In this document: positions 35,352 to 64,000 of the stretch, piece by piece
Layout of the letters: each line of letters opens with the position of its first letter
Numbering within the stretch: position 1 is the stretch's first letter
NCBI GenBank assembly: GCA_964016885.1
Contig: OZ024756.1
Location: 5,828,001 to 5,892,000 of the forward strand
DNA from: Eledone cirrhosa
Taxonomy: Eukaryota
DNA: 64,000 bases
Direction: 5' to 3'
The notes under the pieces: generated by a model
Seen by the model: only the letters and a program-made list of their open reading frames with translations
What the model was told of the DNA's origin: nothing
Databases searched by the model: none
Translations under genes and position numbers: made by a program

Positions 35352-35771
35352 TACTTCTTCTTTTGACTTTGAGGATGTAGTGTGGTGGCTGTAATCGTGG
35401 AACTAGTACTGGATATTAGCAGCGGAGATGTTAACACTCATAAGTTGATAGTAGTGGTAATGTGTTGGAAATGCTAGTGGTAGTGGTTGTGTTTTTTTCT
35501 AGAAGAAGTACCACGTCCACGTATGTGCATATATTTTTTATCTCTCTCTCTATATCTATCTATCTATCTTGATAGAGTAAGACACGCTTCGCATCGACTC
35601 CGCTATTCCATCGGGATTTACCCTTACTATTGTAAGTACCGGATAAATTTTTTAGTGCAACACATTTGGAACACTAACCCCTGTTATTTAGGGAAACATT
35701 TTTGCATTTACCCCCTTTTTAGGGGGTAAAATAAATATCTATTTTTGCCGAAAAATTTCTTTCTTGGCAGC

Positions 35772-37463
35772 ATGGCGGAAAAGATGGCAGACATGTCTGC
35801 CATTGGCTCTGCCACGCCCCCCAAGTCTGAAGAACAAAAAATAATTACAACAAAATTAGACATTGAAACAAACAAACAAAATGAAAAAACAAATGTTAAG
35901 GAAAATGAGCAAACAGAAAACAAACAAACAGAAAATAATACAAATAACGACAGGGCAACTTTCGCCCAGAAAACAAAACAATCCATTACATACACACCAA
36001 TTGACCTAACTGCCGCCAGAGAAAAACTGGCCGAAGCAAAGAAACACATTGTTTTGGGGGAGAACGGAATGTTTTCCATTAACTCCCCCCCAGAATTCAA
36101 GAAAGCCAGAGCAGAAAACACAGTTCTCTACAGAACTATACTGAACCAGACAAGAAAGCCAGCACAGCCCAGCCAAATGGAAATAGAGTTAGTCCTAAAA
36201 GACTATATGAAGAATATTCTCTTCATACGAAAGGACCGACTCTATGGCAGCATTTCGGTCCTAACAAGAGACAAAGAAACGGCGGAGAAGCTTTCCCTAA
36301 GCCCACTCTCGTCGACAACATATAGCTTCTATCCCTCCTACATGGGTAGAAGAACACAGAGAGTAAAAGTAAAAACAATGCTGCCCACAATGGACTTCTG
36401 GTGGGCTATTGCTGGCTTCATTGATATGGGCGAAGACACAATGCTGTCAATGGGGAAGGCAACTGGAGATGCGTTCCTGGGAATGGGCCTCGACATACTA
36501 GTCCAAATGAGGCCCGAAAGAATAGCACAAATCCCGGATCGCATCTGGCTGGATGACCTTACCACAATAGACATAATTGTAGAGGGGAGAAGACCAGCAT
36601 GCTATTTATGCATGGAAAGGGGACACGTTAAGGCTAACTGCCCGAAACGTATCCCCCAAAAAGGACTATTGCCCACACCCACCACAAACAGTACACCAAC
36701 ACCACCCACCTCCAAAAATACACTAATACCACACACAGCAAACAAAATACAGACACCACCAACCACAAACACAACACAAACATCACCACCACCAGCACCA
36801 AACACAAGCACGACACAAAAATCACCACCACCAACCACAACACAAACATCACCACCACCATCACCAACCACAAGCACGACACAAACATTACCACCACCAC
36901 CACAAAACCCATTCCAAACAAATAATAAAAAAAACAGTAACAAATCTACCCCTCCCGCAAAAAAAAAACAACCACACAACACGTCCCTCCCACCTAGCGC
37001 TGAAGAGTTTCCCCCAACTTCTGAAGAAGAAGGAGGAGAAGCCTTCAGACAAGTTAAAAGAAAAAAAAGAAAACACACACCCAGCACACCACAAATAACC
37101 CACACACAAACACCAACTCCAATCAAAAACACCCCACCCTCAACACACAAAAATAAATCTGCGCCTCCCCTCTCCGAAACATTGACAGCATCACAAAAAA
37201 AGACGTTGCAATACACATATATAAATAAAGAAAACAAAAAACTGGTTAAATTAATAAACAATAACCCTATGGTGCAGACCGAAGGGCCAAACTTTATCTC
37301 AACAGAGAACTTCACCCATTTAAAAATGATAAAGGTCCCTCTGGACCTTTATCGTTCCTTAAAAGAACAATTTAGACCGGACGTGAGCCCCCCCCCCCCC
37401 CTGTTTAAAACCGTTGAATCGCGTCCTCTTGAAAGATTTCCCCATAACCGCCCCTCTCCCTGA
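35772..37463 (+). CDS. LINE ORF1 gag-like protein with zinc knuckle
   Basis: Open frame from ATG 35772. CYLCMERGHVKANC fits CX2CX4HX4C and is followed by a Pro/Thr-rich region and a basic KRKKRK stretch. Confidence 0.85.
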   Translation: MAEKMADMSAIGSATPPKSEEQKIITTKLDIETNKQNEKTNVKENEQTENKQTENNTNNDRATFAQKTKQSITYTPIDLTAAREKLAEAKKHIVLGENGMFSINSPPEFKKARAENTVLYRTILNQTRKPAQPSQMEIELVLKDYMKNILFIRKDRLYGSISVLTRDKETAEKLSLSPLSSTTYSFYPSYMGRRTQRVKVKTMLPTMDFWWAIAGFIDMGEDTMLSMGKATGDAFLGMGLDILVQMRPERIAQIPDRIWLDDLTTIDIIVEGRRPACYLCMERGHVKANCPKRIPQKGLLPTPTTNSTPTPPTSKNTLIPHTANKIQTPPTTNTTQTSPPPAPNTSTTQKSPPPTTTQTSPPPSPTTSTTQTLPPPPQNPFQTNNKKNSNKSTPPAKKKQPHNTSLPPSAEEFPPTSEEEGGEAFRQVKRKKRKHTPSTPQITHTQTPTPIKNTPPSTHKNKSAPPLSETLTASQKKTLQYTYINKENKKLVKLINNNPMVQTEGPNFISTENFTHLKMIKVPLDLYRSLKEQFRPDVSPPPPLFKTVESRPLERFPHNRPSP

Positions 37464-37607
37464 CACAACTCCAAATACCCCAACCCCACCACACACGTGT
37501 ACCCCCACACCACCACAAAACATCCCTCCACCCAACACACCTGATGCCATGGAAATTACGCAACCCGGAGAGGTAAGTGCTTTTCTTTCTTCACTTTCAA
37601 CACCAAA

Positions 37608-40600
37608 ATAGATCAATTGAGAGTTGGCTGTTTGAACGCGCGTGGCCTGGGCTCAGCTTGGAAGCAAGCAAAGCTTCTAAGTGACCTCAGGTCACAAAGT
37701 ATAGTTGTGATGGTTGTTTGCGAGAGTCGGATCAGCAGCGTGAGACAGCTGGCGCCCGCCTTCGATGACTTTGAGATGCACGCATCTCTCTGTCAACCCG
37801 GAGGCGGGGGGGGGGGAGTTGCCGTACTGCTGGATAAACGTCTGACTCTCGACGTACAGATTGTTCACTCGGACCCGGGGGGTCGATTACTGGTGCTGGA
37901 CGTCGGAGGCGGTGAAGGCGGGGCTTTCAGACTGGTCGGTCTTTATGCTCCCTTCGGGGCGGAAAGAGCCGACTTCTTCCAACGTCTGGAGACTTTTCTA
38001 GGAACGTCGCGTTCCCTGCTTTTAGTGGGGGACTGGAATGGAATCCTAGATGCGCGTTGGGACTATGCAGGGGCATGTCCCGATAGAGGGGGGTGCAGCA
38101 GCCTCAAGGGGTTACTCGATTGATTCGACCTGGTCGATAGATTTCGACTAGATTGTCCAACTGCGCCAACCTGGACCTGGGCAAACCGCAGTGGACAATC
38201 TAGATCGTACCTAGATAGGTTTTTGGTTAGGAGTAAGGATAGGGACGTATTTAGTTGTCCAGAACTGATCATGGTTGGCTATTCAGATCACAAATTAGTG
38301 ACCTGCGTGGTCAACCTTGATAGAACGCATAGACAGGGTCCCGGTTACTGGAAGATGAACTTGTCCTTACCGACAAAGAAAGATTACAGAAACCGGATTA
38401 GTAGCTTAGTTAAGATGCGGTTGACGGGAGCGATCGTCAACAGTAGGTGGTGGATATCTCTAAAGAGAGAGATTAGAGTAAGTTCGATAGGTTACAGTAA
38501 GGAACTAGCGGCGAATAGAAATAGGAGGGAAAGGGAGTTAACAGATAAACTAGAAGAGGCGATTAGGAGCGGAGACGTAGCCAGAGTGTTAGCGACGAGA
38601 ACGGCATTGAGCCAGTTCTTTGACGCGAAGCACGAAGGCTGCGTTGTCCGAAGTAAAATACGTGCTTTAGGAAACGAGGGGACCAAAGCTGTTAGCTGGG
38701 CCCGCGTGACAGAAGCCAAGAGTGGGATTAAATCCACCATTCGGTCTTTGCGAGACCAGGATGGATGGGTGATCCTTGAACCTGAGCGAATGTGCGAGAC
38801 CTTTCAAAGGCACTTTGCTCGACTGTTCGGAGGTGGCGGGGGGCCGGACGGGGATGTGGACTTCGGTCCATACCTAGACGGTCTACCGCGTCTTTCGAGC
38901 GGCGAAGCGGAGTGCTGCGAAAGGCCAATCACAGCCACTGAAATCGGGGAAGCGCTCAGCCAATGCAGCAGACGCAAATCCCCGGGTCTCGATGGTCTAC
39001 CATACGAACTTTATTTAGCTATGCCGGTCTTGTTCTCCGAACTCCTCGAGGCTGTCTATTGCAACTGGCAACAGAACGGGAGAATTCCCTGGTCTGTGAC
39101 CAAGGGCGTGGTCACGCTAGTGAGGAAGGACGAGAGCAAGGGGGACGACTTAAGTAACTTTAGGCCCATAACTCTGCTGAATGCAGAGTTACAGATTTTG
39201 GCCAAGGTGTTGGCGAAGAGGTTGGCGCTTGTGGTGGGTGGTTTGGTGGGAGACGCGCAGACATGCGCTATCTCGTCCAGGTCCATTCACGACAACCTCC
39301 ACCTCATGCGATACATCATAGAGAGGGTTGGCTACGAACCCGGCTTTGGTGGGGCCCTGATCAACTTGGATCAATCTAAGGCGTTCGATAGGGTCGACCA
39401 TGGTTACCTGGATGCGGTGCTAGCGGCGGCGGGCTTCGGACCCGTTTTCAGGGGCTGGATTTCTGCCATGCACAGTGGCAACATCTACTCTAGGATTAAA
39501 GTAAACGGCTACCTCTCGGAGCCGTTTCAAATCACCCGATCCATCAGACAGGGGTGCCCCCTCCCCTCCCTTCTGTACGTATTGACTCTCGAGCCACTGC
39601 TGCGGAAGTTGGAGTTGCTGCGGGGCATACCCCTGGAACCGGGATTGCACAAAGCGGTCTCGGCCTATGCCGACGACGTAACAGTAATGGTGGCGGACGC
39701 CTCGGAAATCGGGGCGATCGCCACCCTACTGGAGGAATACGAAAGGCTGACGGGGGCTAAGCTGAACCAGGACAAGTCAGTCGGTTTGCAACTCGGAACG
39801 TGGAGGGGCAAACCGATGCCGTTAGACGGTGTTGTCGGGCGGTGGACGGAGGGCCCGGTGAAGCTGCTCGGGGTCTGGTTCGGACCGGACCTCCAGGTGG
39901 AGAAGAATTGGGGCGAGGTGACGAGCAGGGTGTTTGCGCTGACCCAGAAGTGGGCCAAGTGCAAACTATCACTGAAAGGTCGGGCGGAGGTGACGAACGC
40001 TTACATAGCGTCCGTCATCTACTACCGCCTGACCGTCGTGCCTTGCCCCAAGGAAAAGCTCACCATCATGGTACGCATGCTCTTCCAGTTCCTCTGGAAG
40101 AAGCGGCCTCCCATGGTGAGGAGATCCATCTGCTGCCAGCACCCTTCGAAAGGAGGGCTGGGTATGCCGTGGCTGTTGATGCGTAGGCACGCATTGAGGC
40201 TACGGCATCTACAGGTATTCCTCAACGGTCAGCCGGTGTGGGCCCCGTTTGTGAGGCGAGCCTTCCCACAGCTCGTCTCGCTCACCGAACTGCAATCCTG
40301 GGTGAAGCAAAGACCGAGAAAACTGGGCAACTGGCACACTGAGTGTGCCCAGGCGCTCACGGCTATCTGGCAAGCGGACCCGACTGTCAGTGGAGAATCC
40401 ACCTCGACATTCTATAGAGGGTTGGTGGCTAGCAGGGGCGACGACACCCTTCGAGAGTCGCTAGGCATGGAGGAGGACGAACTGGCCAGCCTGTTCGGTA
40501 GAACTTTCGGCCCGGGACCCATGGACAACTTCCAGAGGTCCCTAGCCTGGCAGTGTTACCGGGGGGCTCTGCCCGTTCGAGAAAAGCTATACAGACACGG

Positions 40601-41048
40601 GCGCCCGGGCAGGGATCCCGCGAAAAAGATCTGTCCCAGATGCGTGCGCGACGAGGAAACCGTTGCGCATGCACTGGTACACTGCCCGGGCGTTGCCGAT
40701 CTGTGGGGCTACGTCGAACGACTGCTGTCGCGTGTGGCGCCGATTCGATTAACCGCCGAGTCTGTGGTGAACATCAAGCCGCCTCCTCCCTTCAGAAATG
40801 AAGCAGAGGCGGTCTTTCTGTGCGTAATAGCCATGATGAAAGAGGTTGTGTGGTGGACGCGCCTGAAAGGTCTGAGGTCGGGTGACTTTCTCTCCGGCCA
40901 TCACCTGGTTTACTTCTTCCGATACCACTTCGGAAGAAGAATCAGGATGGAGAGAGAAGTGCTTGGTCCCAGACAGTTTTATGAAAGGTGGGTGAAAGAA
41001 GCGAGAATGGCCCGTGTAAATGGGCCTTCTCTCTACATTGTTCTGTAG
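37608..41048 (+). pseudogene. LINE ORF2 (APE endonuclease, reverse transcriptase, zinc finger) with one in-frame stop
   Basis: ORFs 37617-38123 and 38223-41048 are in the same frame, separated by TGA 38121-38123. Motifs: LNARGL, GDWN, YLDRF, SDH (endonuclease); KSPGLDG, FRPITLLN, DQSKAFD, RQGCPL, YADD (RT); CPRC..ETVAHALVHC. Confidence 0.9.
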
Positions 41049-48288: not shown

Positions 48289-48378
48289 TACAGGACTAGA
48301 AATGTTTCATTCGAAAGAAATCATCAGGAAAGCCGTTTCCTGATGATTTCCTTCGAATGAAACAGTTCTAGTGCTGTA
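48289..48378. repeat. 43-bp inverted repeat with a 4-nt loop; each arm carries CTGATGA...GAAAC
   Basis: Arms 48289-48331 and 48336-48378, 3 mismatches, loop GCCG. Confidence 0.9.
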
Positions 48379-48507
48379 GAAGTAATTTATATATTAAATA
48401 TATATAGGAAAACGTTTGACACCGTTCCTATTACCCACTCTACTACCCTAAGTATTGAGTACTCTGGTGCGGTATGGCCCATCTGATTCCTTACCACACA
48501 TCCTTCG

Positions 48508-52876
<4,369 letters not shown>

Positions 52877-52932
52877 TTTGAATCTAATTTCGGCGCGAAC
52901 AGGTTGAAAAACTAGATGTCTGATTTTGAGTT

Positions 52933-53011
52933 TGTCTCCTGATGAATCCTAACCCAGGAAATTCTTATTAATTGGATGTCTAAAAATACGGATGAAACCA
53001 TGGTAGAGATA
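52933..53011 (+). ncRNA. Type I hammerhead ribozyme, family C copy 1
   Basis: Stem I TGTCTC/GAGATA; CTGATGA 52939-45; stem II ATCC/GGAT closing a long loop; GAAA 52994-97; palindromic stem III ACCATGGT; GUA triplet. Confidence 0.8.
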
Positions 53012-53589
53012 TAATTACGGTATGTACACATTTCTTCTAAGTTTAATTTTACAACTAATTGTGTATGGTTGATGATATATTTAGTCAGTTTCCACATGCT
53101 GTCGAAATGTTGGATAAATATACTATATTGGGGCCACCGCGAAGAGGCCACTTTCGGTTATTTGTCGAAGATTTCTTCATAAGAGCCTTTCTTCTTATAG
53201 CTTGGTCTAATTGATTTTTATATGGTTAATTATGCTAATTGGAAGAAGAAACGGTATATATTTTATCTAATAATTCTAAAGACATGATTTATGATATATT
53301 GCTCTGATTATTTAATTTATTAATTCTTCATAGAGCTTAAAAGTGACCGGTTGCAACATATATATCTATAACTTTATGTATATGTAAAACTTTATATTTA
53401 ATAATCTCCCGTTAGGTTGAGATTAAATTTGGCGATATTTGGCTGCGCTTTCTAGCAACAAGCCTTCCCGCCGTAAGCAGCCAATCACATTCTTTCTAAC
53501 TTGACCACAGCCACATAGCGATTCTTAGCCATCTTTGAATCTAATTTCGGCGCGATCAGGTTGAAAAACTAGATGTCTGATTTTGAGTT

Positions 53590-53668
53590 TTGCTCCTGAT
53601 GAATCCTAACTCAGGACATTCCTATTAATTGGATGTCTAAAAATACGGATGAAACCATGGTAGAGATA
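53590..53668 (+). ncRNA. Type I hammerhead ribozyme, family C copy 2 (weaker stem I)
   Basis: CTGATGA 53596-602; ATCC/GGAT; GAAA-CCATGG-TA 53651-62; stem I CTC/GAG. Confidence 0.7.
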
Positions 53669-53951
53669 TAATTACGGTATGTACACATTTCTTCTAAGTT
53701 TAATTTTACAACTAATTGTGTATGGTTGATGATATATTTAGTCAGTTTCTACATGCCGTCGAAATGTTGGATAAATATACTATATTGGGGCCACCGCGAA
53801 GAGGCCACTTTCGGTTATTTGTCGAAGATTTCTTCATAAGAGCCTTTCTTCTTATAGCTTGGTCTAATTGATTTTTTATATGGTTAATTATGCTAATTGG
53901 AAGAAGAAACGGTATATATTTTATCTAATAATTCTAAAGACATGATTTATG

Positions 53952-54018
<67 letters not shown>

Positions 54019-54050
54019 GAAGTGGTTACACAACAGTTAGTTCACCACAC

Positions 54051-54087
54051 CGAGAAAAATTGTTTCACCTTACGGATCCTCAGCTCG
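54051..54087 (-). ncRNA. Degenerate minimal HHR in the Penelope pLTR
   Basis: Minus strand reads CGAG-CTGAGGA-TCC-gtaa-GGT-GAAA-CAATTT-TT-CTCG. Stem I CGAG/CTCG; stem III appears mutated. Confidence 0.6.
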
Positions 54088-54255
54088 TAATGGACATGGT
54101 TATACGGAACAGGAAGGTAAACAGTACGGACGCCCATGCGCAGAAACCATCACTTCACTCAGGCAATACTAAATTGCGTGCGAGAGGTGTAAGGGAGATA
54201 ACTGCGAAAGTCCGAAAGTTTCTATTTGATAAGAAAATTAGGATGTTGTTGTAAT

Positions 54256-54989
54256 TCAATCCAGAGCTTTGTAGTTATGTAAGAGGTGTTTGCAGACGTG
54301 TGGACAACGTGTGAAGAAATCATTTTTCGTGTTTAGGCAATCACTATTGCGTAATCTCTTTAGAATATTTATTCGTTCATCAATACATAGTCCACACAAC
54401 GGATTGTCCCTTGCATATGGCTTGGACTTAGTGATGGCTTTCCATTGAATGGAGTAGTCTATACTTGAGTCCTTGATGGACAATACGTGGCTCGCGAGTT
54501 TTGTGGATGAACGTCTGTCCGGGTACCTAAAGTTCGACTGTTGGTTCAGGAAACGTTCCTTAAATCGGCTCTCCGCCATACCCACGTAGGATTTGACATC
54601 CTGTGGTTGATTTGGTCTGTTGGAAGTGACCACAACTTCATAAAATACAGCGGGTGCGTTGCATTGATGTTGAAGGGGACAAGATTTGGGCTTACGGCAA
54701 GAGCACCCTGGTGGGGTGTTGCTCTTAGGGCTGCTTTCATGTTCTTAGCGCAGGAGTGTACTAGTTTTACTTGGGGTCGGTTAAAGATGGAGCGGTATTT
54801 ATGACCTATGGGAAAGGGTCTATCTAAGAGGACTAGAAATGTTTTGCCTACATTGGTATTAACGTTGAGTGAGAAGGGAGGAGAGAACCAGATAGTGTGT
54901 ATATTGTTACGCTTTCTTTCCTTATTGCTGTTGTTGTTAGTGGGAGAGTAAGTGATAGGTTGCGAGAAGCCGCTATTAGCTTCTCGCAA
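54256..54989 (-). pseudogene. Frameshifted C-terminal part of the Penelope ORF (linker and GIY-YIG nuclease)
   Basis: ORFs 54546-54989 and 54256-54633 encode consecutive parts of one protein in different frames. The RT core is absent. Confidence 0.85.
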
Positions 54990-55152
54990 ACAGGGAAGAT
55001 AAAGCTGACAGAGTTGTTTCGTACATTTTGGTACTTATCAAAGCTAACGACAATAGCGTAAGGTCTTCGAAATGCTTATAATTAAGCATACAGTGTATTT
55101 CAAAATAAACTGTATATGCTTTCATATATTTACCGCTATTTCAGAACACCAA

Positions 55153-55217
<65 letters not shown>

Positions 55218-55383
55218 AATTAATATTTAGTAACATATATATACATACAGATGCATATCAATGCTAGCAAATATATAGGTTTTGTCTTAGTAGCTTTGTG
55301 GTTCAATGCATGGGGTTGCAGAACAATAATATGAGAGACGTAAAGAAGAAAATTATAAAATTAACTTACTTACTAAAATATCA

Positions 55384-55463
55384 CTTCCAACTAATTAGTT
55401 TCTGGAATGGAATAAATATGTTTTCCGAAGAAGACATAGCGAATCATTGCGTCGTCAGGGAAG
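55384..55463 (-). ncRNA. Type I HHR, family A
   Basis: Reverse complement of the motif at 56376-56455. Confidence 0.8.
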
Positions 55464-55905
55464 ACTATTCTCATCTAAGTATCCAGGCAAAGCGTGGACC
55501 TTGGAAACTTATTAAAAAATAATTCAGTGGATAGAAAATAGCAAAGCGTGGACTGAATTCCTAGCCATTGAGAAAATCACTGCCTCTGCGCCGGTGTCAA
55601 ATTCAAAAAGAATCAATCACGTGACATCGAGGTCAATCAGTGGAAAGTGGTTTGCTAATAAGACGGCGGCCTGCCTGCTACCATAGCAGCAGTCATGGCC
55701 AATATTGCTCGACAAATAATTTGGAGATAATTATAAAGAATTAATATTTAGTAACATATATATACATACAGATGCATATCAATGCTAGCAAATATATGGG
55801 TTTTGTCTTAGTAGCTTTGTGGTTCAATGCATGGGGTTGCAGAACAATAATATGAGAGACGTAAAATAAGAAAATTATAAAATTAACTTACTTACTAAAA
55901 TATCA

Positions 55906-55985
55906 CTTCCAACTAATTAGTTTCTGGAATGGAATAAATATATTTTCCGAAGAAGACATGGAGAATCATTGCGTCGTCAGGGAAG
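55906..55985 (-). ncRNA. Type I HHR, family A
   Basis: Reverse complement of the motif at 56376-56455. Confidence 0.8.
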
Positions 55986-56375
55986 ACTATTCTCATCTAA
56001 GTATCCAGGCAAAGCTTGGACTCTGGAAACGTATTAAAAAATAATTCAGTGAAAGCAAAGAGTGGACTGAATTCCTAGCCATTGAGAAAATCACTGCCTT
56101 CTTTATAATTGTCTCCAAATTATTTGTCGAGCAATATTGGCCATGACTGCTGCTATGGTAGCAGGCAGGCCGCTGTCTTATTAGCAAACCACTTTCCACT
56201 GATTGACCTCGATGTCACGTGATTGATTCTTTTTGAATTTGCCACCGACGCAGAGGCAGTGATTTTCCCAATGGCTAGGAATTCAGTCCACGCTTTGCTA
56301 TTTTCTATCCATTGAATTATTTTTTAATAGGTTTCCAGAGTCCACGCTTTGCCTGGATACTTAGATGAGAATAGT

Positions 56376-56455
56376 CTTCCCTGACGACGCAATGATTCTC
56401 CATGTCTTCTTCGGAAAATATATTTATTCCATTCCAGAAACTAATTAGTTGGAAG
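56376..56455 (+). ncRNA. Type I HHR, family A
   Basis: Stem I CTTCC/GGAAG; CTGACGA 56381-87; stem II GCAATG/CATTCC extended by a hairpin with a C(TTCG)G loop; GAAA 56437-40; palindromic ACTAATTAGT; GUU triplet. Confidence 0.82.
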
Positions 56456-56897
56456 TGATATTTTAGTAAGTAAGTTAATTTTATAATTTTCTTATTTTAC
56501 GTCTCTCATATTATTGTTCTGCAACCCCATGCATTGAACCACAAAGCTACTAAGACAAAACCCATATATTTGCTAGCATTGATATGCATCTGTATGTATA
56601 TATATGTTACTAAATATTAATTCTTTATAATTATCTCCAAATTATTTGTCGAGCAATATTGGCCATGACTGCTGCTATGGTAGCAGGCAGGCCGCTGTCT
56701 TATTAGCAAAGCACTTTCCACTGATTGACCTCGATGCCACGTGATTGATTCTTTTTGAATTTGCCACCGACGCAGAGGCAGTGATTTTTTCAATGGCTAG
56801 GAATTCAGTCCACGCTTTGCTATTTTCTATCCACTGAATTATTTTTTAATAAGTTTCCAGAGTCCACGCTTTGCCTGGATACTTAGATGAGAATAGT

Positions 56898-56977
56898 CTT
56901 CCCTGACGACGCAATGATTCGCCATGTCTTCTTCGGAAAATATATTTATTCCATTCCAGAAACTAATTAGTTGGAAG
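56898..56977 (+). ncRNA. Type I HHR, family A
   Basis: Same motif; CTGACGA 56903-09, GAAA 56959-62. Confidence 0.82.
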
Positions 56978-57058
56978 TGATATTTTAGTAAGTAAGTTAA
57001 TTTTATAATTTTCTTATTTTACGTTTCTCATATTATTGTTCTGCAACCCCATGCATTG

Positions 57059-58824
57059 TACCGCTTACACTGAGGCCAGAGATGAGGCACTGATAGAGAA
57101 GATAAGAAGTGTGGGGAGAGCGGTTGACAGATCTGGATGTAAGGAGAGCTGGATGATCATCAACGAGATCACAGGGAGGAAGAGAAGGTGTTCCAGTCAG
57201 ATCCAGGGAACGGGGCACGAGGATAGGAAGAGGAAATGGCTAGACCATTTTAGGACCCTACTAGGAGAGCCACCCTCCACAGCCCAAAGCACTGGGGAGA
57301 TCAGGCGGCTGTTTGAGGAACTGGATATTGAGGCAGAGCCCTTCACCAGAGAGGATCTTAAGAGAGCCAAGAAGAGGATCAAGGAGGGCAAGGCTCAGGG
57401 AGAAGATGGAGTGGCATCAGAGGTGATGAAGAGGTGTGATTTTGATGATATCATCCTGGGGTTCTGTTACCCCGAATCAGGGGAGGATCAGTAACATCGT
57501 CCCAGTGCCAAAGAAGGGAGATCTCTCTAACACCAACAACTACAGGGGGATCTCACTGACGACACGTGTGGTAAAGACCCTCAACAGGATGATTCTTAAC
57601 AGGATCCAGCCTGAGGTGGAGAAGAAGCTCAGGGACAACCAGAACGGCTTCAGAGAGGGAAGATCAACCACCAGTCACATCCTGATGCTGAGGAGCATAT
57701 TAGAGGGAGCTAGAGCAAAGTGCCTTCCTGCGGTCATGGTTTTCATTGACTTTAGGAAGGCCTTTGATTTTGTGGACCGTCACTGCCTGATGAAGATCTT
57801 ACAGGCTTATGGAATCCCCAAGAGGACAGTGGACCTGATATCACTGCTCTACACCAACACTAAAGCCCAAGTCATTACACCTGATGGGATGACAGAGTTC
57901 TTTGAGATGCTGGCTGAAGTGTTCCAGGGAGATACATCGGCTCCCTACATTTTTATCATCGTAGTGTACTATTGTATGCGCCTTGCACTGGAGAAACACC
58001 AGGACACTGGCTTTACAGTAGAACCGGCTCAGAGCAGGAGAGTTAAGGCGAAAAAGGTATCAGATGCTGAATTTGCCGACGACATAGTTTTGGTGACAAA
58101 TACAGTGAAGGAGGCAGAGGATTTGATGCAGGAGGTTGAGACTGTGTCGATGAGTGTGGGGCTGAGAATGAATGAGACTAAAACAAAATATCTGGTAGAG
58201 AATGTTGAGAAGCAGGAGGAGATCACTAATATAGGCGGGAAGCTGCTAGAATTGGTTGAGGACTTCCTGTATTTGGGAGCAAAGATTGGGAATACGGAAG
58301 ATGATGTGGCTGAGAGGAAGAGCAAAGCCTGGGCGGCGTGTCACAGGTTGAGATCGGTGTGGAAGTCGAACCTTCGTGAAGACCTGAAAATCCGCCTCTT
58401 CATTGCTTTAGTGGAGTCTGTGCTGCTGTACGGGTCTGAGACTTGGACACTGACCAAGGAACTCACTCAGATGGTGGATGAGTGCTACACGAGAATGCTG
58501 AGGATGGCTCTGAACATTAATCAGCATACACTGAGGCTGAAAAACTCAGAGCTGTATGGGAGTCTCCCAAAAGTCAGCTCAACTGTGACACAGAGGAGAC
58601 TGAGGTTAGCTGGACATGCTCACCGACATCCAGAGTTGACATTGCACTCAGTGGTCCTGTGGGAGCCCCTACATGAACACACTGGAAGAGGAAGACCAAG
58701 GTTAACGTATGTTGATGCCCTAAGGACAGACACTGGTCTGTTGGAGACGAAGAACATGGCAGCGATAATGAGGGACAGAGACCGCTGGAGAGAACTCGTC
58801 CATGGATCTCGGGAATTTTACCCG

Positions 58825-58827
<3 letters not shown>
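57059..58827 (+). mobile_element. 5'-truncated RTE-type LINE (RT domain and C terminus), frameshifted near 57470, ending in (TA)n
   Basis: PVPKKGDL..NYRGISL, QNGFREGRST, FIDFRKAFD, QGD, FADD, FLYLG, LLYGSETW, RRLRLAGH, GRGRPR..DRDRW. Confidence 0.88.
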
Positions 58828-58945: not shown

Positions 58946-58992
<47 letters not shown>

Positions 58993-59165
58993 ACTAACAT
59001 AGGCGCACAGATGCACGTCCATGCCAGCAAATACACAGGTTATGTCATAGTACCTAGGTGGTTCAATGCAGGAGGGTGCAGAACTATAATATAAAAGACG
59101 TAAAATAAGAAAATATTTTTTAAAAAATTTTTTAAAAAGTTTTTTACTTACTTACTTAAATTTTC

Positions 59166-59247
59166 ACTCCAACTAATTAGTTTCTGCAATGGGATAAAGA
59201 CAGTTACATAATCCAACTGTCGAGAATTCATTGCGTCATCAGGGAGT
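59166..59247 (-). ncRNA. Type I HHR, family B
   Basis: Reverse complement of the motif at 61693-61774. Confidence 0.82.
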
Positions 59248-59724
59248 CTATTCTCAGCTGAGCCTCCAGGCAATGCGCGGACACTAGCGGCTCATATAAA
59301 AATAATAATTCGGTAGAAAGAACCGCTAGGCGAGGACTGGATTCTATGTACTGAAATTCTCACTGCTTCCAGTCAAATGGCCGATTCTAAAGAATCAATC
59401 ACGTGACATAGAGGCTAGTTAGAAGGAATGGGATGGTAAGATGACTGACGCCTACTAACACCCCAACAAAAAAATTTTGAAGTGGTTTTGGCAGGTTTGC
59501 TCGACAAATCAGTGATTTGGAGATAAATATAGATAATTTAATATATCAACTAACATAGGCGCACAGATGCACGTCCATGCCAGCAAATACACAGGTTATG
59601 TCATAGCATCTAGGTGGTTCAATGCAGGAGGGTGCAGAACAATAATATAAAAGACGTAAAATAAGAAAATATTTTTTAAAAAATTTAAAAAAAAATTTTT
59701 TTTTACTTACTTACTTAAATTTTC

Positions 59725-59806
59725 ACTCCAACTAATTAGTTTCTGCAATGGGATAAAGACAGTTACATAATCCAACTGTCGAGAATTCATTGCGTCATCA
59801 GGGAGT
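59725..59806 (-). ncRNA. Type I HHR, family B
   Basis: Reverse complement of the motif at 61693-61774. Confidence 0.82.
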
Positions 59807-60280
59807 CTATTCTCAGCTGAGCCTCCAGGCAATGCGCGGACACTGGCGGCTCATATAAAAATAATAATTCGGTAGAAAGAACAGCTAGGCGAGGACTGGA
59901 TTCTATGTACTGAAATTCTCACTGCTTCCAGTCAAATGGCCGATTCTAAAGAATCAATCACGTGACATAGAGGCTAGTTAGAAGGAATGGGATGGTAAGA
60001 TGACTGACGCCTACTAACACCCCAACAAAAAAATTTTGAAGTGGTTTTGGCAGGTTTGCTCGACAAATCAGTGATTTGGAGATAAATATAGATAATTTAA
60101 TATATCAACTAACATAGGCGCACAGATGCACGTCCATGCCAGCAAATACACAGGTTATGTCATAGTACCTAGGTGGTTCAATGCAGGAGGGTGCAGAACA
60201 ATAATATAAAAGACGTAAAATAAGAAAATATTTTTTAAAAAATTTTAAAAAATTTTTTTTACTTACTTACTTAAATTTTC

Positions 60281-60362
60281 ACTCCAACTAATTAGTTTCT
60301 GCAATGGGATAAAGACAGTTACATAATCCAACTGTCGAGAATTCATTGCGTCATCAGGGAGT
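60281..60362 (-). ncRNA. Type I HHR, family B
   Basis: Reverse complement of the motif at 61693-61774. Confidence 0.82.
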
Positions 60363-60837
60363 CTATTCTCAGCTGAGCCTCCAGGCAATGCGCGGACACT
60401 GGCGGCTCATATAAAAATAATAATTCGGTAGAAAGAACAGCTAGGCGAGGACTGGATTCTATGTACTGAAATTCTCACTGCTTCCAGTCAAATGGCCGAT
60501 TCTAAAGAATCAATCACGTGACATAGAGGCTAGTTAGAAGGAATGGGATGGTAAGATGACTGACGCCTACTAACACCCCAAAAAAAATTTTGAAGTGGTT
60601 TTGGCAGGTTTGCTCGACAAATCAGTGATTTGGAGATAAATATAGATAATTTAATATATCAACTAACATAGGCGCACAGATGCACGTCCATGCCAGCAAA
60701 TACACAGGTTATGTCATAGCATCTAGGTGGTTCAATGCAGGAGGGTGCAGAACAATAATATAAAAGACGTAAAATAAGAAAATATTTTTAAAAAATGTTA
60801 AAAAACATTTTTTTTTTACTTACTTACTTACATTTTC

Positions 60838-60919
60838 ACTCCAACTAATTAGTTTCTGCAATGGGATAAAGACAGTTACATAATCCAACTGTCGAGAATT
60901 CATTGCGTCATCAGGGAGT
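60838..60919 (-). ncRNA. Type I HHR, family B
   Basis: Reverse complement of the motif at 61693-61774. Confidence 0.82.
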
Positions 60920-61391
60920 CTATTCTCAGCTGAGCCTCCAGGCAATGCGCGGACACTGGCGGCTCATATAAAAATAATAATTCGGTAGAAAGAACAGCTA
61001 GGCGAGGACTGGATTCTATGTACTGAAATTCTCACTGCTTCCAGTCAAATGGCCGATTCTAAAGAATCAATCACGTGACATAGAGGCTAGTTAGAAGGAA
61101 TGGGATGGTAAGATGACTGACGCCTACTAACACCCCAAAAAAAATTTTGAAGTGGTTTTGGCAGGTTTGCTCGACAAATCAGTGATTTGGAGATAAATAT
61201 AGATAATTTAATATATCAACTAACATAGGCGCACAGATGCACGTCCATGCCAGCAAATACACAGGTTATCTCATAGTACCTAGGTGGTTCAATGCAGGAG
61301 GGTGCAGAACAATAATATAAAAGACGTAAATTAAGAAAATATTTTTTTAAAAATTTTTTAAAAATTTTTTTACTTACTTACTTAAATTTTC

Positions 61392-61437
61392 ACTCCAACT
61401 AATTAGTTTCTGAGAATTCATTGCGTCATCAGGGAGT
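61392..61437 (-). pseudogene. Family B HHR with an approximately 36-bp deletion removing most of stem II
   Basis: GTTTCTG is joined directly to AGAATTCATTGCG; CAATGGGATAAAGACAG...CTGTCG is missing. Confidence 0.75.
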
Positions 61438-61692
61438 CTATTCACAGCTGAGCCTCCAGGCAAAAAAATTTTTTTGGGGTGTTAGTAGGCGTCAGTCATC
61501 TTACCATCCCATTCCTTCTAACTAGCCTCTATGTCACGTGATTGATTCTTTAGAATCGGCCATTTGACTGGAAGCAGTGAGAATTTCAGTACATAGAATC
61601 CAGTCCTCGCCTAGCTGTTCTTTCTACCGAATTATTATTTTTATATGAGCCGCCAGTGTCCGCGCATTGCCTGGAGGCTCAGCTGAGAATAG

Positions 61693-61774
61693 ACTCCCTG
61701 ATGACGCAATGAATTCTCGACAGTTGGATTATGTAACTGTCTTTATCCCATTGCAGAAACTAATTAGTTGGAGT
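61693..61774 (+). ncRNA. Type I HHR, family B
   Basis: Stem I ACTCC/GGAGT; CTGATGA 61698-704; stem II GCAATG/CATTGC with inner hairpin GACAGTT/AACTGTC; GAAA 61756-59; palindromic ACTAATTAGT; GUU triplet. Confidence 0.85.
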
Positions 61775-62246
61775 GAAAATTTAAGTAAGTAAGCAAAAAA
61801 ATTTTTTAAAAATTTTTTAAAAAATATTTTCTTATTTTACATCTTTTATATTATTGTTCTGCACCCTCCTGCATTGAACCACCTAGGTACTATGACATAA
61901 CCTGTGTATTTGCTGGCATGGACGTGCATCTGTGCGCCTATGTTAGTTGATATATTAAATTATCTATATTTATCTCCAAATCACTGATTTGTCGAGCAAA
62001 CCTGCCAAAACCACTTCAACATTTTTTGGGGGGTGTTAGTAGGCGTCAGTCATCTTACCATCCCATTCCTTCTAACTAGCCTCTATGTCACGTGATTGAT
62101 TCTTTAGAATCGGCCATTTGACTGGAAGCAGTGAGAATTTCAGTACATAGAATCCAGTCCTCGCCTAGCTGTTCTTTCTACCGAATTATTATTTTTATAT
62201 GAGCCGCCAGTGTCCGCGCATTGCCTGGAGGCTCAGCTGAGAATAG

Positions 62247-62328
62247 ACTCCCTGATGACGCAATGAATTCTCGACAGTTGGATTATGTAACTGTCTTTAT
62301 TCCATTGCAGAAACTAATTAGTTGGAGT
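62247..62328 (+). ncRNA. Type I HHR, family B
   Basis: Same motif as 61693-61774. Confidence 0.85.
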
Positions 62329-62800
62329 GAAAATTTAAGTAAGAAAGTAAAAAAATTTTTAAAAAATTTTTAAAAAAATATTTTCTTATTTTACGTCTTT
62401 TATATTATTGTTCTGCACCCTCCTGCATTGAACCACCTAGGTACTATGAGATAACCTGTGTATTTGCTGGCATGGACGTGCATCTGTGCGCCTATGTTAG
62501 TTGATATATTAAATTATCTATATTTATCTCCAAATCACTGATTTGTCGAGCAAACCTGCCAAAACCACTTCAAAATTTTTTTTGGGGTGTTAGTAGGCGT
62601 CAGTCATCTTACCATCCCATTCCTTCTAACTAGCCTCTATGTCACGTGATTGATTCTTTAGAATCGGCCATTTGACTGGAAGCAGTGAGAATTTCAGTAC
62701 ATAGAATCCAGTCCTCGCCTAGCTGTTCTTTCTACCGAATTATTATTTTTATATGAGCCGCCAGTGTCCGCGCATTGCCTGGAGGCTCAGCTGAGAATAG

Positions 62801-62882
62801 ACTCCCTGATGACGCAATGAATTCTCGACAGTTGGATTATGTAACTGTCTTTATCCCATTGCAGAAACTAATTAGTTGGAGT
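62801..62882 (+). ncRNA. Type I HHR, family B
   Basis: Same motif as 61693-61774. Confidence 0.85.
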
Positions 62883-63354
62883 GAAAATTTAAGTAAGTAA
62901 GCAAAAAATTTTTTTAAAAATTTTTTAAAAAATATTTTCTTATTTTACATCTTTTATATTATTGTTCTGCACCCTCCTGCATTGAACCACCTAGGTACTA
63001 TGACATAACCTGTGTATTTGCTGGCATGGACGTGCATCTGTGCGCCTATGTTAGTTGATATATTAAATTATCTATATTTATCTCCAAATCACTGATTTGT
63101 CGAGCAAACCTGCCAAAACCACTTCAAAATTTTTTTTGGGGTGTTAGTAGGCGTCAGTCATCTTACCATCCCATTCCTTCTAACTAGCCTCTATGTCACG
63201 TGATTGATTCTTTAGAATCGGCCATTTGACTGGAAGCAGTGAGAATTTCAGTACATAGAATCCAGTCCTCGCCTAGCTGTTCTTTCTACCGAATTATTAT
63301 TTTTATATGAGCCGCCAGTGTCCGCGCATTGCCTGGAGGCTCAGCTGAGAATAG

Positions 63355-63436
63355 ACTCCCTGATGACGCAATGAATTCTCGACAGTTGGATTATGTAACT
63401 GTCTTTATTCCATTGCAGAAACTAATTAGTTGGAGT
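63355..63436 (+). ncRNA. Type I HHR, family B
   Basis: Same motif as 61693-61774. Confidence 0.85.
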
Positions 63437-63908
63437 GAAAATTTAAGTAAGAAAGTAAAAAACTTTTTAAAAAATTTTAAAAAAAATATTTTCTTATTTT
63501 ACGTCTTTTATATTATTGTTCTGCACCCTCCTGCATTGAACCACCTAGGTACTATGAGATAACCTGTGTATTTGCTGGCATGGACGTGCATCTGTGCGCC
63601 TATGTTAGTTGATATATTAAATTATCTATATTTATCTCCAAATCACTGATTTGTCGAGCAAACCTGCCAAAACCACTTCAAAATTTTTTTTGGGGTGTTA
63701 GTAGGCGTCAGTCATCTTACCATCCCATTCCTTCTAACTAGCCTCTATGTCACGTGATTGATTCTTTAGAATCGGCCATTTGACTGGAAGCAGTGAGAAT
63801 TTCAGTACATAGAATCCAGTCCTCGCCTAGCTGTTCTTTCTACCGAATTATTATTTTTATATGAGCCGCCAGTGTCCGCGCATTGCCTGGAGGCTCAGCT
63901 GAGAATAG

Positions 63909-63989
63909 ACTCCCTGATACGCAATGAATTCTCGACAGTTGGATTATGTAACTGTCTTTATCCCATTGCAGAAACTAATTAGTTGGAGT
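63909..63989 (+). pseudogene. Family B HHR with a 1-nt core deletion (CTGAT-A)
   Basis: CCCTGATACGCAATG instead of CCCTGATGACGCAATG. This is either a real mutation or a consensus error. Confidence 0.65.
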
Positions 63990-64000
63990 GAAAATTTAAG

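Follow-up and report, generated by a model that had tools for sequence, protein, structure and literature searches.

The analysed window, a stretch of 64,000 nucleotides of the genome of Eledone cirrhosa, contains a tandem repeat (family A) with a hammerhead core in each unit, as well as a second, collinear tandem repeat (family B). This locus raised the question whether such repeats are inert satellite DNA or elements whose RNA is selected to fold and, if the latter, by which enzymes they are copied. On the evidence presented below, family A is best explained (probability approximately 0.8) as a non-LTR retrozyme that carries a variant hammerhead and is likely a non-autonomous PLE, copied in trans by a Penelope reverse transcriptase-endonuclease.

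Repeat analysis of the window yielded a unit length of 522 bp for family A, whose copies (55213–57062) form a head-to-head inversion with arms of 1.7 units (minus strand) and 1.8 units (plus strand). Units of families A and B showed no LTR, no ORF and a GC content below 50%, with a type I hammerhead in each tandem unit; a motif scan of the window located the hammerhead core in 4/4 A copies and in B copies. The features of the locus are:

54019–55157, minus strand: Hydra-like PLE fragment (endonuclease, CxCX5C linker, no CCHH); its 3' UTR holds a minimal U.U hammerhead
55158–55214, no strand: (AT)n microsatellite, left insertion target, with TATA microhomology at the junction
55213–56099, minus strand: family A inverted arm, 1.7 units (unit 148–522, then 1–522), with its 3' end ('end2', unit 522) at 55213
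55384–55472, minus strand: hammerhead copy A-2 (C3 at 55458, predicted cut after 55389), with a C.C break in stem II and a broken pseudoknot loop (UUCGC)
55906–55994, minus strand: hammerhead copy A-1 (C3 at 55980, predicted cut after 55911), with a C.C break in stem II
56100–57062, plus strand: family A direct arm, 1.8 units (reference unit 56107–56628), which stops at unit position 434, where a LINE begins
56190–56197, plus strand: predicted 'anti-stem I' strand CACUUUCC, complementary to the 3' strand of stem I, with a second copy at 56712–56719; a single compensatory event
56214–56222, plus strand: motif GTCACGTGA, conserved in the alignment
56328–56363, plus strand: hairpin immediately 5' of the ribozyme with compensatory changes (9 pairs, 4 changed on both sides, 90% of cells paired)
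56367–56455, plus strand: hammerhead copy A+1, with stem I 56376–56380/56451–56455, core from 56381, palindromic stem III and predicted cut after U 56450
56367–56371 and 56396–56400, plus strand: pseudoknot strands GAGAA and UUCUC of copy A+1
56388/56436 and 56390/56434, plus strand: C.A mismatch and C.C break, respectively, of copy A+1
56466–56471, plus strand: GTAAGT just 3' of the ribozyme, conserved in families A/B, E and F and varied in family D
56512–56628, plus strand: 117-nt tail from 'end1' (unit 405, window 56511) to end2 (unit 522); CATTGAACCAC is common to this tail and family E
56889–56977, plus strand: hammerhead copy A+2 (C3 at 56903, predicted cut after 56972), with a C.C break and a broken pseudoknot loop (UUCGC)
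57063–58827, plus strand: 5'-truncated LINE reverse transcriptase fragment (RVT_1, E 1.5e-31), adjoining family A and followed by (AT)n
58985–61464, minus strand: family B inverted arm, approximately 4.4 units of 554–559 bp, starting in (AT)n
61465–64000, plus strand: family B direct arm, which continues for approximately 620 bp beyond the window and stops at end1 into (AT)n

The LINE fragment is presumably of the RTE type, judging from its motifs, and GTCACGTGA is taken to be an E-box-like motif that may have a promoter role. TCACGTGA is present also in the pLTR of a PLE locus, L253. GTAAGT is possibly a 5' splice site or U1 site; inspection of the A/B alignment by eye revealed no conserved 3' splice site downstream of it.

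Other repeats were observed in the window. A third tandem family (52876–53942; 657 bp, 1.6 copies), flanked by (AT)n runs, carries a type I ribozyme whose stem II is long (GTCTC/GAGAT in stem I, CCATGG in stem III, GUA) and has relatives at 72–86% in loci L231 and L263. At 55003–55045 (minus strand) lies a small hammerhead with a U3-A8 core variant, stem II GUAC/GUAC and a weak match to Rfam HH9, of which a close copy occurs within L253. Yet another hammerhead family (approximately 48297–48383, core 48340, plus strand; U.U first pair, stem III CAG..CUG, GUA) was found also in L255, L258, L262 and L264. Positions 1–29492 consist of a 29-kb array of a 21-bp unit (approximately 1,360 copies, 90% match), and positions 35730–41048 hold a LINE with two frames that appears to be nearly complete (a frame of 577 aa, followed by endonuclease-like and RT/zf-RVT frames, the latter of 974 aa).

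The sequence-only reading had described A as a 522-bp repeat collinear with B, which was borne out by 386 identical positions among 504 aligned columns (76.6%) and by blastn (73% over 414 nt, E 4e-59). The cores CTGACGA in A and CTGATGA in B were recovered by the motif scan, GAAACTAATTAGTT was indeed invariant between the families, and the distal stem II hairpin of A was capped by C(UUCG)G as stated. That the two cores agree save for one free position was correct as to the letters; the first stem II pair, however, is C.A and not G-C. Both stem I sequences (CTTCC/GGAAG in A, ACTCC/GGAGT in B) were present, but their difference, which had been read as covariation, does not represent compensatory substitution: one pair has been inserted on both strands (ACTCC/GGAGT to ACTTCC/GGAAGT), and A has lost the outer A-U pair. 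The further claim, that differences between A and B preserve the ribozyme fold, did not hold in the window. At the base of stem II, all four A copies have GCAATG, a 5' strand identical to that of B, opposite CATTCC, which gives the C.C at 56390/56434, and this local A-versus-B difference thus breaks the fold. The pairwise argument from A/B covariation to selection on RNA structure is therefore weak, since it consists of a single compensated indel, a free position, columns that do not vary and a stem II pair that is broken, whereas the conclusion itself stood in larger alignments across subfamilies.

The broken pair is unusual within the lineage. A pattern for the A lineage matched 996 cores in the genome, and the paired G was present in 99/100 among the matches listed; the window copies are thus an exception in a family that keeps the fold. 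Forcing the hammerhead fold cost approximately 5 kcal/mol in the two window copies that were folded, versus 2.0 kcal/mol for a typical copy of A and 2.5 kcal/mol for B; even in typical copies, the minimum free energy fold was not the hammerhead. The four window copies are probably weak or inactive, and they are interpreted as the result of a single insertion, whose template already carried the broken pair in stem II. The stretch 56376–56977, which had been proposed for a cleavage assay, contains two ribozymes that both have the C.C break; it lacks the first pseudoknot strand (56367–56371), and the pseudoknot of its second ribozyme is also broken (UUCGC).

In the 3.0 Gb genome, the core pattern with a long stem II gave at least 10,610 exact matches, compared with 0 for the reversed-pattern control; the motif is not due to chance. 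The same core with a short stem II gave 52 matches (control, 1), and pattern scans of metagenome contigs and viral contigs yielded 0 core matches each. Copies of family A with 97–99% identity over a 151-nt query occurred on at least 11 contigs. In a tree of 40 representatives, based on the 245 nt upstream of the ribozyme (40/130 intact stretches, kept after removal of near-copies), A and B stood at the two ends of a ladder-like series of subfamilies. The more distant families D, E, F and G showed the same architecture with little or no sequence alignable to A/B. A family B array of approximately 19 kb, far beyond the typical insertion length, was observed at C1 301,308,000–301,327,500 (L045–L060).

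A larger alignment of relatives, as the sequence-only reading had proposed, retained the stems with pair changes on both sides, and RNAalifold recovered stem II and the distal hairpin unaided. In a hand-picked set of 26 diverse ribozymes, 95.9% of cells were paired, as compared to 90.1% after shuffling (0/500 as high) and at most 54.7% when the strands were slid. Pair II.2 was GC in 9, UA in 8, AU in 5 and CG in 3 of these sequences, and broken in one, a window A copy. On the 40-row tree, II.2 required at least three double changes (from UA to CG towards B, and from UA via AU to GC towards A), and II.5 changed from GC to UA on both branches. As the sequences are related, independent covariation events are few (about 5–6 double changes in the ribozyme on the tree). 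For the 26 ribozymes, the pairs that had changed on both sides were no more numerous than in shuffled alignments (204/500), and for a further alignment that included the upstream hairpin the corresponding figure was 32/500. Covariation was strong in stem II; in stem I, A/B varied by indel and wobble, and D/E by double changes. Stem III was invariant in A/B, and is uninformative there for that reason, with other palindromes in D, E, F and G. An extension of distal stem I (ACUUA with a downstream UAAGU) was rejected: it showed no double changes, and ACUUA pairs in the upstream hairpin. At the level of sequence, covariation showed selection on the RNA for folding into a type I hammerhead whose stem II is long and which includes a pseudoknot.

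This hammerhead has an unusual core. Families A/B contain the type I elements CUGANGA, GAAA and NUH, with an open stem I and GUU as the cut triplet, and are non-canonical in having C.A instead of G-C at the first stem II position (10.1–11.1). This pair is variable or U.U in E and F, mostly G-C in D, and unpaired in 8 of 25 D/E rows. Rfam hammerhead models gave no match to A or B at the gathering score or at E ≤ 5. In PLE hammerheads, G10.1-C11.1 is highly conserved, with one extra nucleotide after A9 (PMC4209133), and mispairs at this position have been used as a ground to reject matches (PMC4209133; PMC3088659), although natural U.U exceptions are known (PMC3088659; PMC7229834). Stem III consists of three pairs within a 12-nt palindrome, for which a hairpin was calculated at +1.5 kcal/mol and a duplex at -10.8 kcal/mol. 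These values fit the dimer cleavage known for PLE hammerheads (PMC6765202), which have a palindromic helix III and act as dimers (PMC4209133).

The pseudoknot is formed between GAGAA, 5' of stem I, and UUCUC in the internal loop of stem II. It occupies the place expected for the tertiary contact that links stem I to stem II, a role in which pseudoknots are known (PMC3088659). Covarying forms were GAGAA/UUCUC, GAAAA/UUUUC and GGAAA/UUUCC, the last of which is the form in family G. In 26 A/B sequences the middle pair was GC in 21, AU in 4, GU in 1 and broken in none, with one origin of the change on the tree; in the 25 D/E rows it was GC in 12, AU in 10, GU in 2 and broken in 1. Genome counts were 10,628 for GAGAA+TTCTC (control, 6) and 1,797 for GARAA+TTTTC (control, 33; GAAAA in 80/100 among the matches listed). 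The mismatched combination GAAAA+TTCTC gave 456 matches, of which approximately 27/100 among the matches listed were truly mismatched; 17/20 examined loci of this pattern carry GAGAAAA upstream.

A second long-range interaction was predicted. The anti-stem I strand lies approximately 185 nt upstream of the core, and its partner is the 3' strand of stem I, which would be the 5' end of the RNA after the predicted cleavage. Of 36 sequences, nearly all retain the six informative pairs. The compensatory column (CG 24, UA 10) represents one event, tied to the stem I insertion in the A lineage, and the remaining changes are wobble-preserving transitions. When representative natural monomers were folded as circles (22 of 25), anti-stem I formed in 18/22 and stem I in 2/22; the z-score of the monomer fold was -3.26. 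These folds predict that the anti-stem I helix may block the ribozyme in the circle and act as an off switch. With one evolutionary event and a prediction behind it, this switch is a lead. Viroid-like RNA replicons were considered and rejected: each unit has a ribozyme in one polarity (both strands carry one only through inversion), and the fold is branched, with 57–66% of positions paired.

How these RNAs return to the genome was deduced from 118 complete A/B-like insertions, taken from loci chosen for holding a ribozyme and a few of which may count twice. Their 3' ends fell at two fixed places, unit 405 (end1) and unit 522 (end2), 117 nt apart and 61 and 178 nt beyond the cut site, respectively. 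Inverted insertions combined end1 with end2 in 50 cases, end2 with end2 in one and end1 with end1 in none; 46 others had one standard end and a ragged 5' end, and 21, including the window A insertion, had other ends. Flanks were AT-rich at 75/80 end1 and 61/82 end2 junctions (136/162 standard ends), versus 12/53 of the 5'-truncated ends. The reference unit of family D holds a nested insertion at 1–150, and its ends were left out of the quantitative tally.

Most of these insertions were dispersed and 0.2–2.4 kb long, with fixed RNA-sense 3' ends and ragged 5' ends. Together with the repeated double changes in the stems, this leaves hardly any credibility to the notion of inert satellite DNA, spread by DNA recombination and carrying a relic hammerhead, which the length of some B arrays (approximately 19 kb on C1) and their period-2 alternation might suggest; such features indicate that DNA-level expansion probably acts after insertion. 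The distinction from inert satellite drawn in the sequence-only reading is supported by dispersed insertions with fixed ends in (AT)n, whereas its term 'replicating RNA-based elements' applies only in the sense of retrotransposition.

The direct arm of A in the window adjoins a 5'-truncated LINE that itself ends at (AT)n, as might be expected if the units were SINE-like passengers of a LINE, such as this presumably RTE-type element. However, the junction lies at unit 434, which is neither standard end, and it is one case in 118 insertions; no 3' end common to units and LINE was seen, and the two-end inverted pattern matches that of PLE copies in the same genome. LINE passengers are thus very improbable and largely refuted as an explanation. 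PLE insertions are described as partial tandems that include a 5'-truncated copy in inverted orientation, bear a tail at one side and target (TA)n (PMC8557442). The A/B insertions had the same layout of partial tandem, inverted 5'-truncated arm and one-sided tail, and their 3' ends showed the same preference for (TA)n.

The distance of both insertion ends from the cut site, at which neither falls, also bears on what the fold is selected for. It could have been selected not for catalysis but as a signal by which the PLE reverse transcriptase recognises or packages the RNA, with linear multimers and not circles as templates. In line with this, the C.A first pair and U17 are non-optimal for a hammerhead, a template with the C.C break was nevertheless inserted, and PLE hammerheads show low activity in vitro (PMC4209133). 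Moreover, the outer units of both A arms in the window have two variants in common (unit 224 and 293), as from one heterodimeric template. In both B arms (58985–64000), variants alternate with period 2 at sites that differ per arm. These patterns suggest multimeric templates or later expansion at the DNA level, and the differences between units within arms, with the period-2 alternation in B, disfavour a pure monomer-circle template model. On the other hand, catalytic core positions, C3-G8 and the stem I-stem II contact are all kept across barely alignable families, a conservation that for the A/B core is partly built into the search patterns, and family D keeps G10.1-C11.1 in 9 of the 25 D/E rows. 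Selection for recognition in place of catalysis is, on balance, unlikely, if clearly less so than either of the alternatives discussed above.

For the favoured reading, in which a Penelope enzyme copies the retrozyme in trans, two PLE families in the genome show the same two-end, (AT)n pattern, and mobilisation by PLEs would follow from this shared pattern. Their Neptune-like and Hydra-like labels rest on linker and domain motifs. The Neptune-like family (467 candidates) has a CX4CXXC linker, an RT frame with a C-terminal GIY-YIG, copies 96–99% alike to L253, a hammerhead in the pLTR and two ends into (AT)n at +111 and approximately +179 from this hammerhead. Its young member at L253:3273-8260 (C1 near 145.87 Mb) has a 938-aa stop-free frame, two pLTRs and a U3-A8 hammerhead, in addition to TCACGTGAC and motifs resembling CCAAT and TATA; what appears to be a 3' splice site precedes the ATG, and the element is a candidate source of the enzyme. 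The Hydra-like family, with 55,204 candidate places in the genome, is older; its hammerhead has GUU, the palindrome AACAATTGTT and U.U, and it likewise has two ends. No PLE with A/B homology was found by blastn and nhmmer over 75–94 PLE-containing loci, a small part of the 10,596 and 55,204 candidates; A/B matches at these loci were neighbouring retrozyme insertions only. GIY-YIG protein and family searches and 15 long-frame PLE stretches also yielded no A/B-homologous parent. A PLE frame beside L140 was rejected as parent, being a separate insertion beyond an (AT)n run.

A cycle can be proposed in which an upstream unit would drive transcription through the tandem. The resulting RNA would form the type I hammerhead, with an internal loop of its long stem II paired to the strand 5' of stem I, and would be cleaved after GUU, probably as a dimer via the palindrome AACUAAUUAGUU. 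The products would be RNAs of unit length, which may become circular; in both the linear and the circular form, the 5' end created by cleavage is predicted to pair with the distant CACU(U)CC strand, which would turn the ribozyme off. With UAU(AU) at end1 or end2 as microhomology, the RNA would then be primed at (AT)n, a mechanism suggested by the observed insertion pattern, in which inverted insertions take one end per arm.

Non-LTR retrozymes are likewise tandem, low in GC and non-coding, with a type I hammerhead per unit, and occur in thousands of copies and many subfamilies in genomes that also contain PLEs (PMC7229834; bioRxiv 10.64898/2026.07.22.740005); in the axolotl HHR_Amex2, the base of stem II is likewise mismatched (U.U, versus C.A here). 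The elements described here differ in their unit of 520–570 nt, compared with 170–400 nt (PMC7229834) and 51–972 bp (bioRxiv 10.64898/2026.07.22.740005), and in the extent of pairing given above. They also have a long interrupted stem II with a Watson-Crick pseudoknot in place of loop 1-loop 2 contacts, and inverted arms, two fixed ends and (AT)n targeting, the last three of which are not described for non-LTR retrozymes in the available text of these sources. In a test in Xenopus, 8/9 predicted retrozymes failed to cleave (bioRxiv 10.64898/2026.07.22.740005).

The insertion layout is shared with Neptune and Hydra PLEs (PMC8557442; PMC4209133). Like PLE hammerheads, those of A/B have a short stem I, a palindromic stem III and an unpaired nucleotide after A9 (PMC4209133), but they contain an extra unpaired A before G12 (C.A) and a stem II of approximately 50 nt. 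In contrast to PLEs, the units have no ORF, a tail of 117 nt versus the 30–40 bp described, and no sequence homology to the PLE families sampled in this genome. Non-autonomous PLEs of Chlamys, such as MRC1, are likewise non-coding derivatives with multicopy head-to-tail insertions; they differ in their similarity to the 3' ends of autonomous partner elements and in coming from a clade without canonical hammerheads (PMC8557442). Pseudoknots that join the regions of stems I and II are also a feature of the hammerheads described in PMC3088659, approximately 40% of which are predicted to use one and in which U10.1-U11.1 variants are known. The example assayed there is a metagenomic type II hammerhead, whereas here the 5' flank of an open stem I pairs with a stem II internal loop in an animal retroelement. 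Derivation of retrozymes from PLEs has already been argued in print (bioRxiv 10.64898/2026.07.22.740005). Neither this hammerhead form in retrozymes nor the rule of one of each end was found in the literature searched, as far as the accessible parts of these sources extend; published variants from work on PLE hammerhead dimers, and further alignments of PLE hammerheads (PMC4209133), may already include a C.A or pseudoknot form.

The origin of tandem and inverted insertions, tails and microsatellite bias in PLEs has been named as an open question (PMC8557442), and the role of PLE hammerheads is described as untested in vivo (PMC4209133). The protein-free template of 0.5 kb, which has thousands of copies and two ends of known position, and the young candidate enzymes in the same genome make the question of PLE insertion directly testable. 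Tentatively, the long stem II with its internal-loop pseudoknot and the free first pair could define an undescribed subclass of active hammerheads that works as an on/off switch, and the combination of end1 with end2 could expose two-strand priming by Penelope at two fixed sites in the RNA. Rfam does not detect the ribozyme variant, and descriptors in which positions 10.1–11.1 must pair would reject it, such that the number of families of this kind in other animals may be underestimated. If the tentative interpretation is true, an RNA of 500 nt would serve as a minimal template with which Penelope retrotransposition could be reconstituted in vitro.
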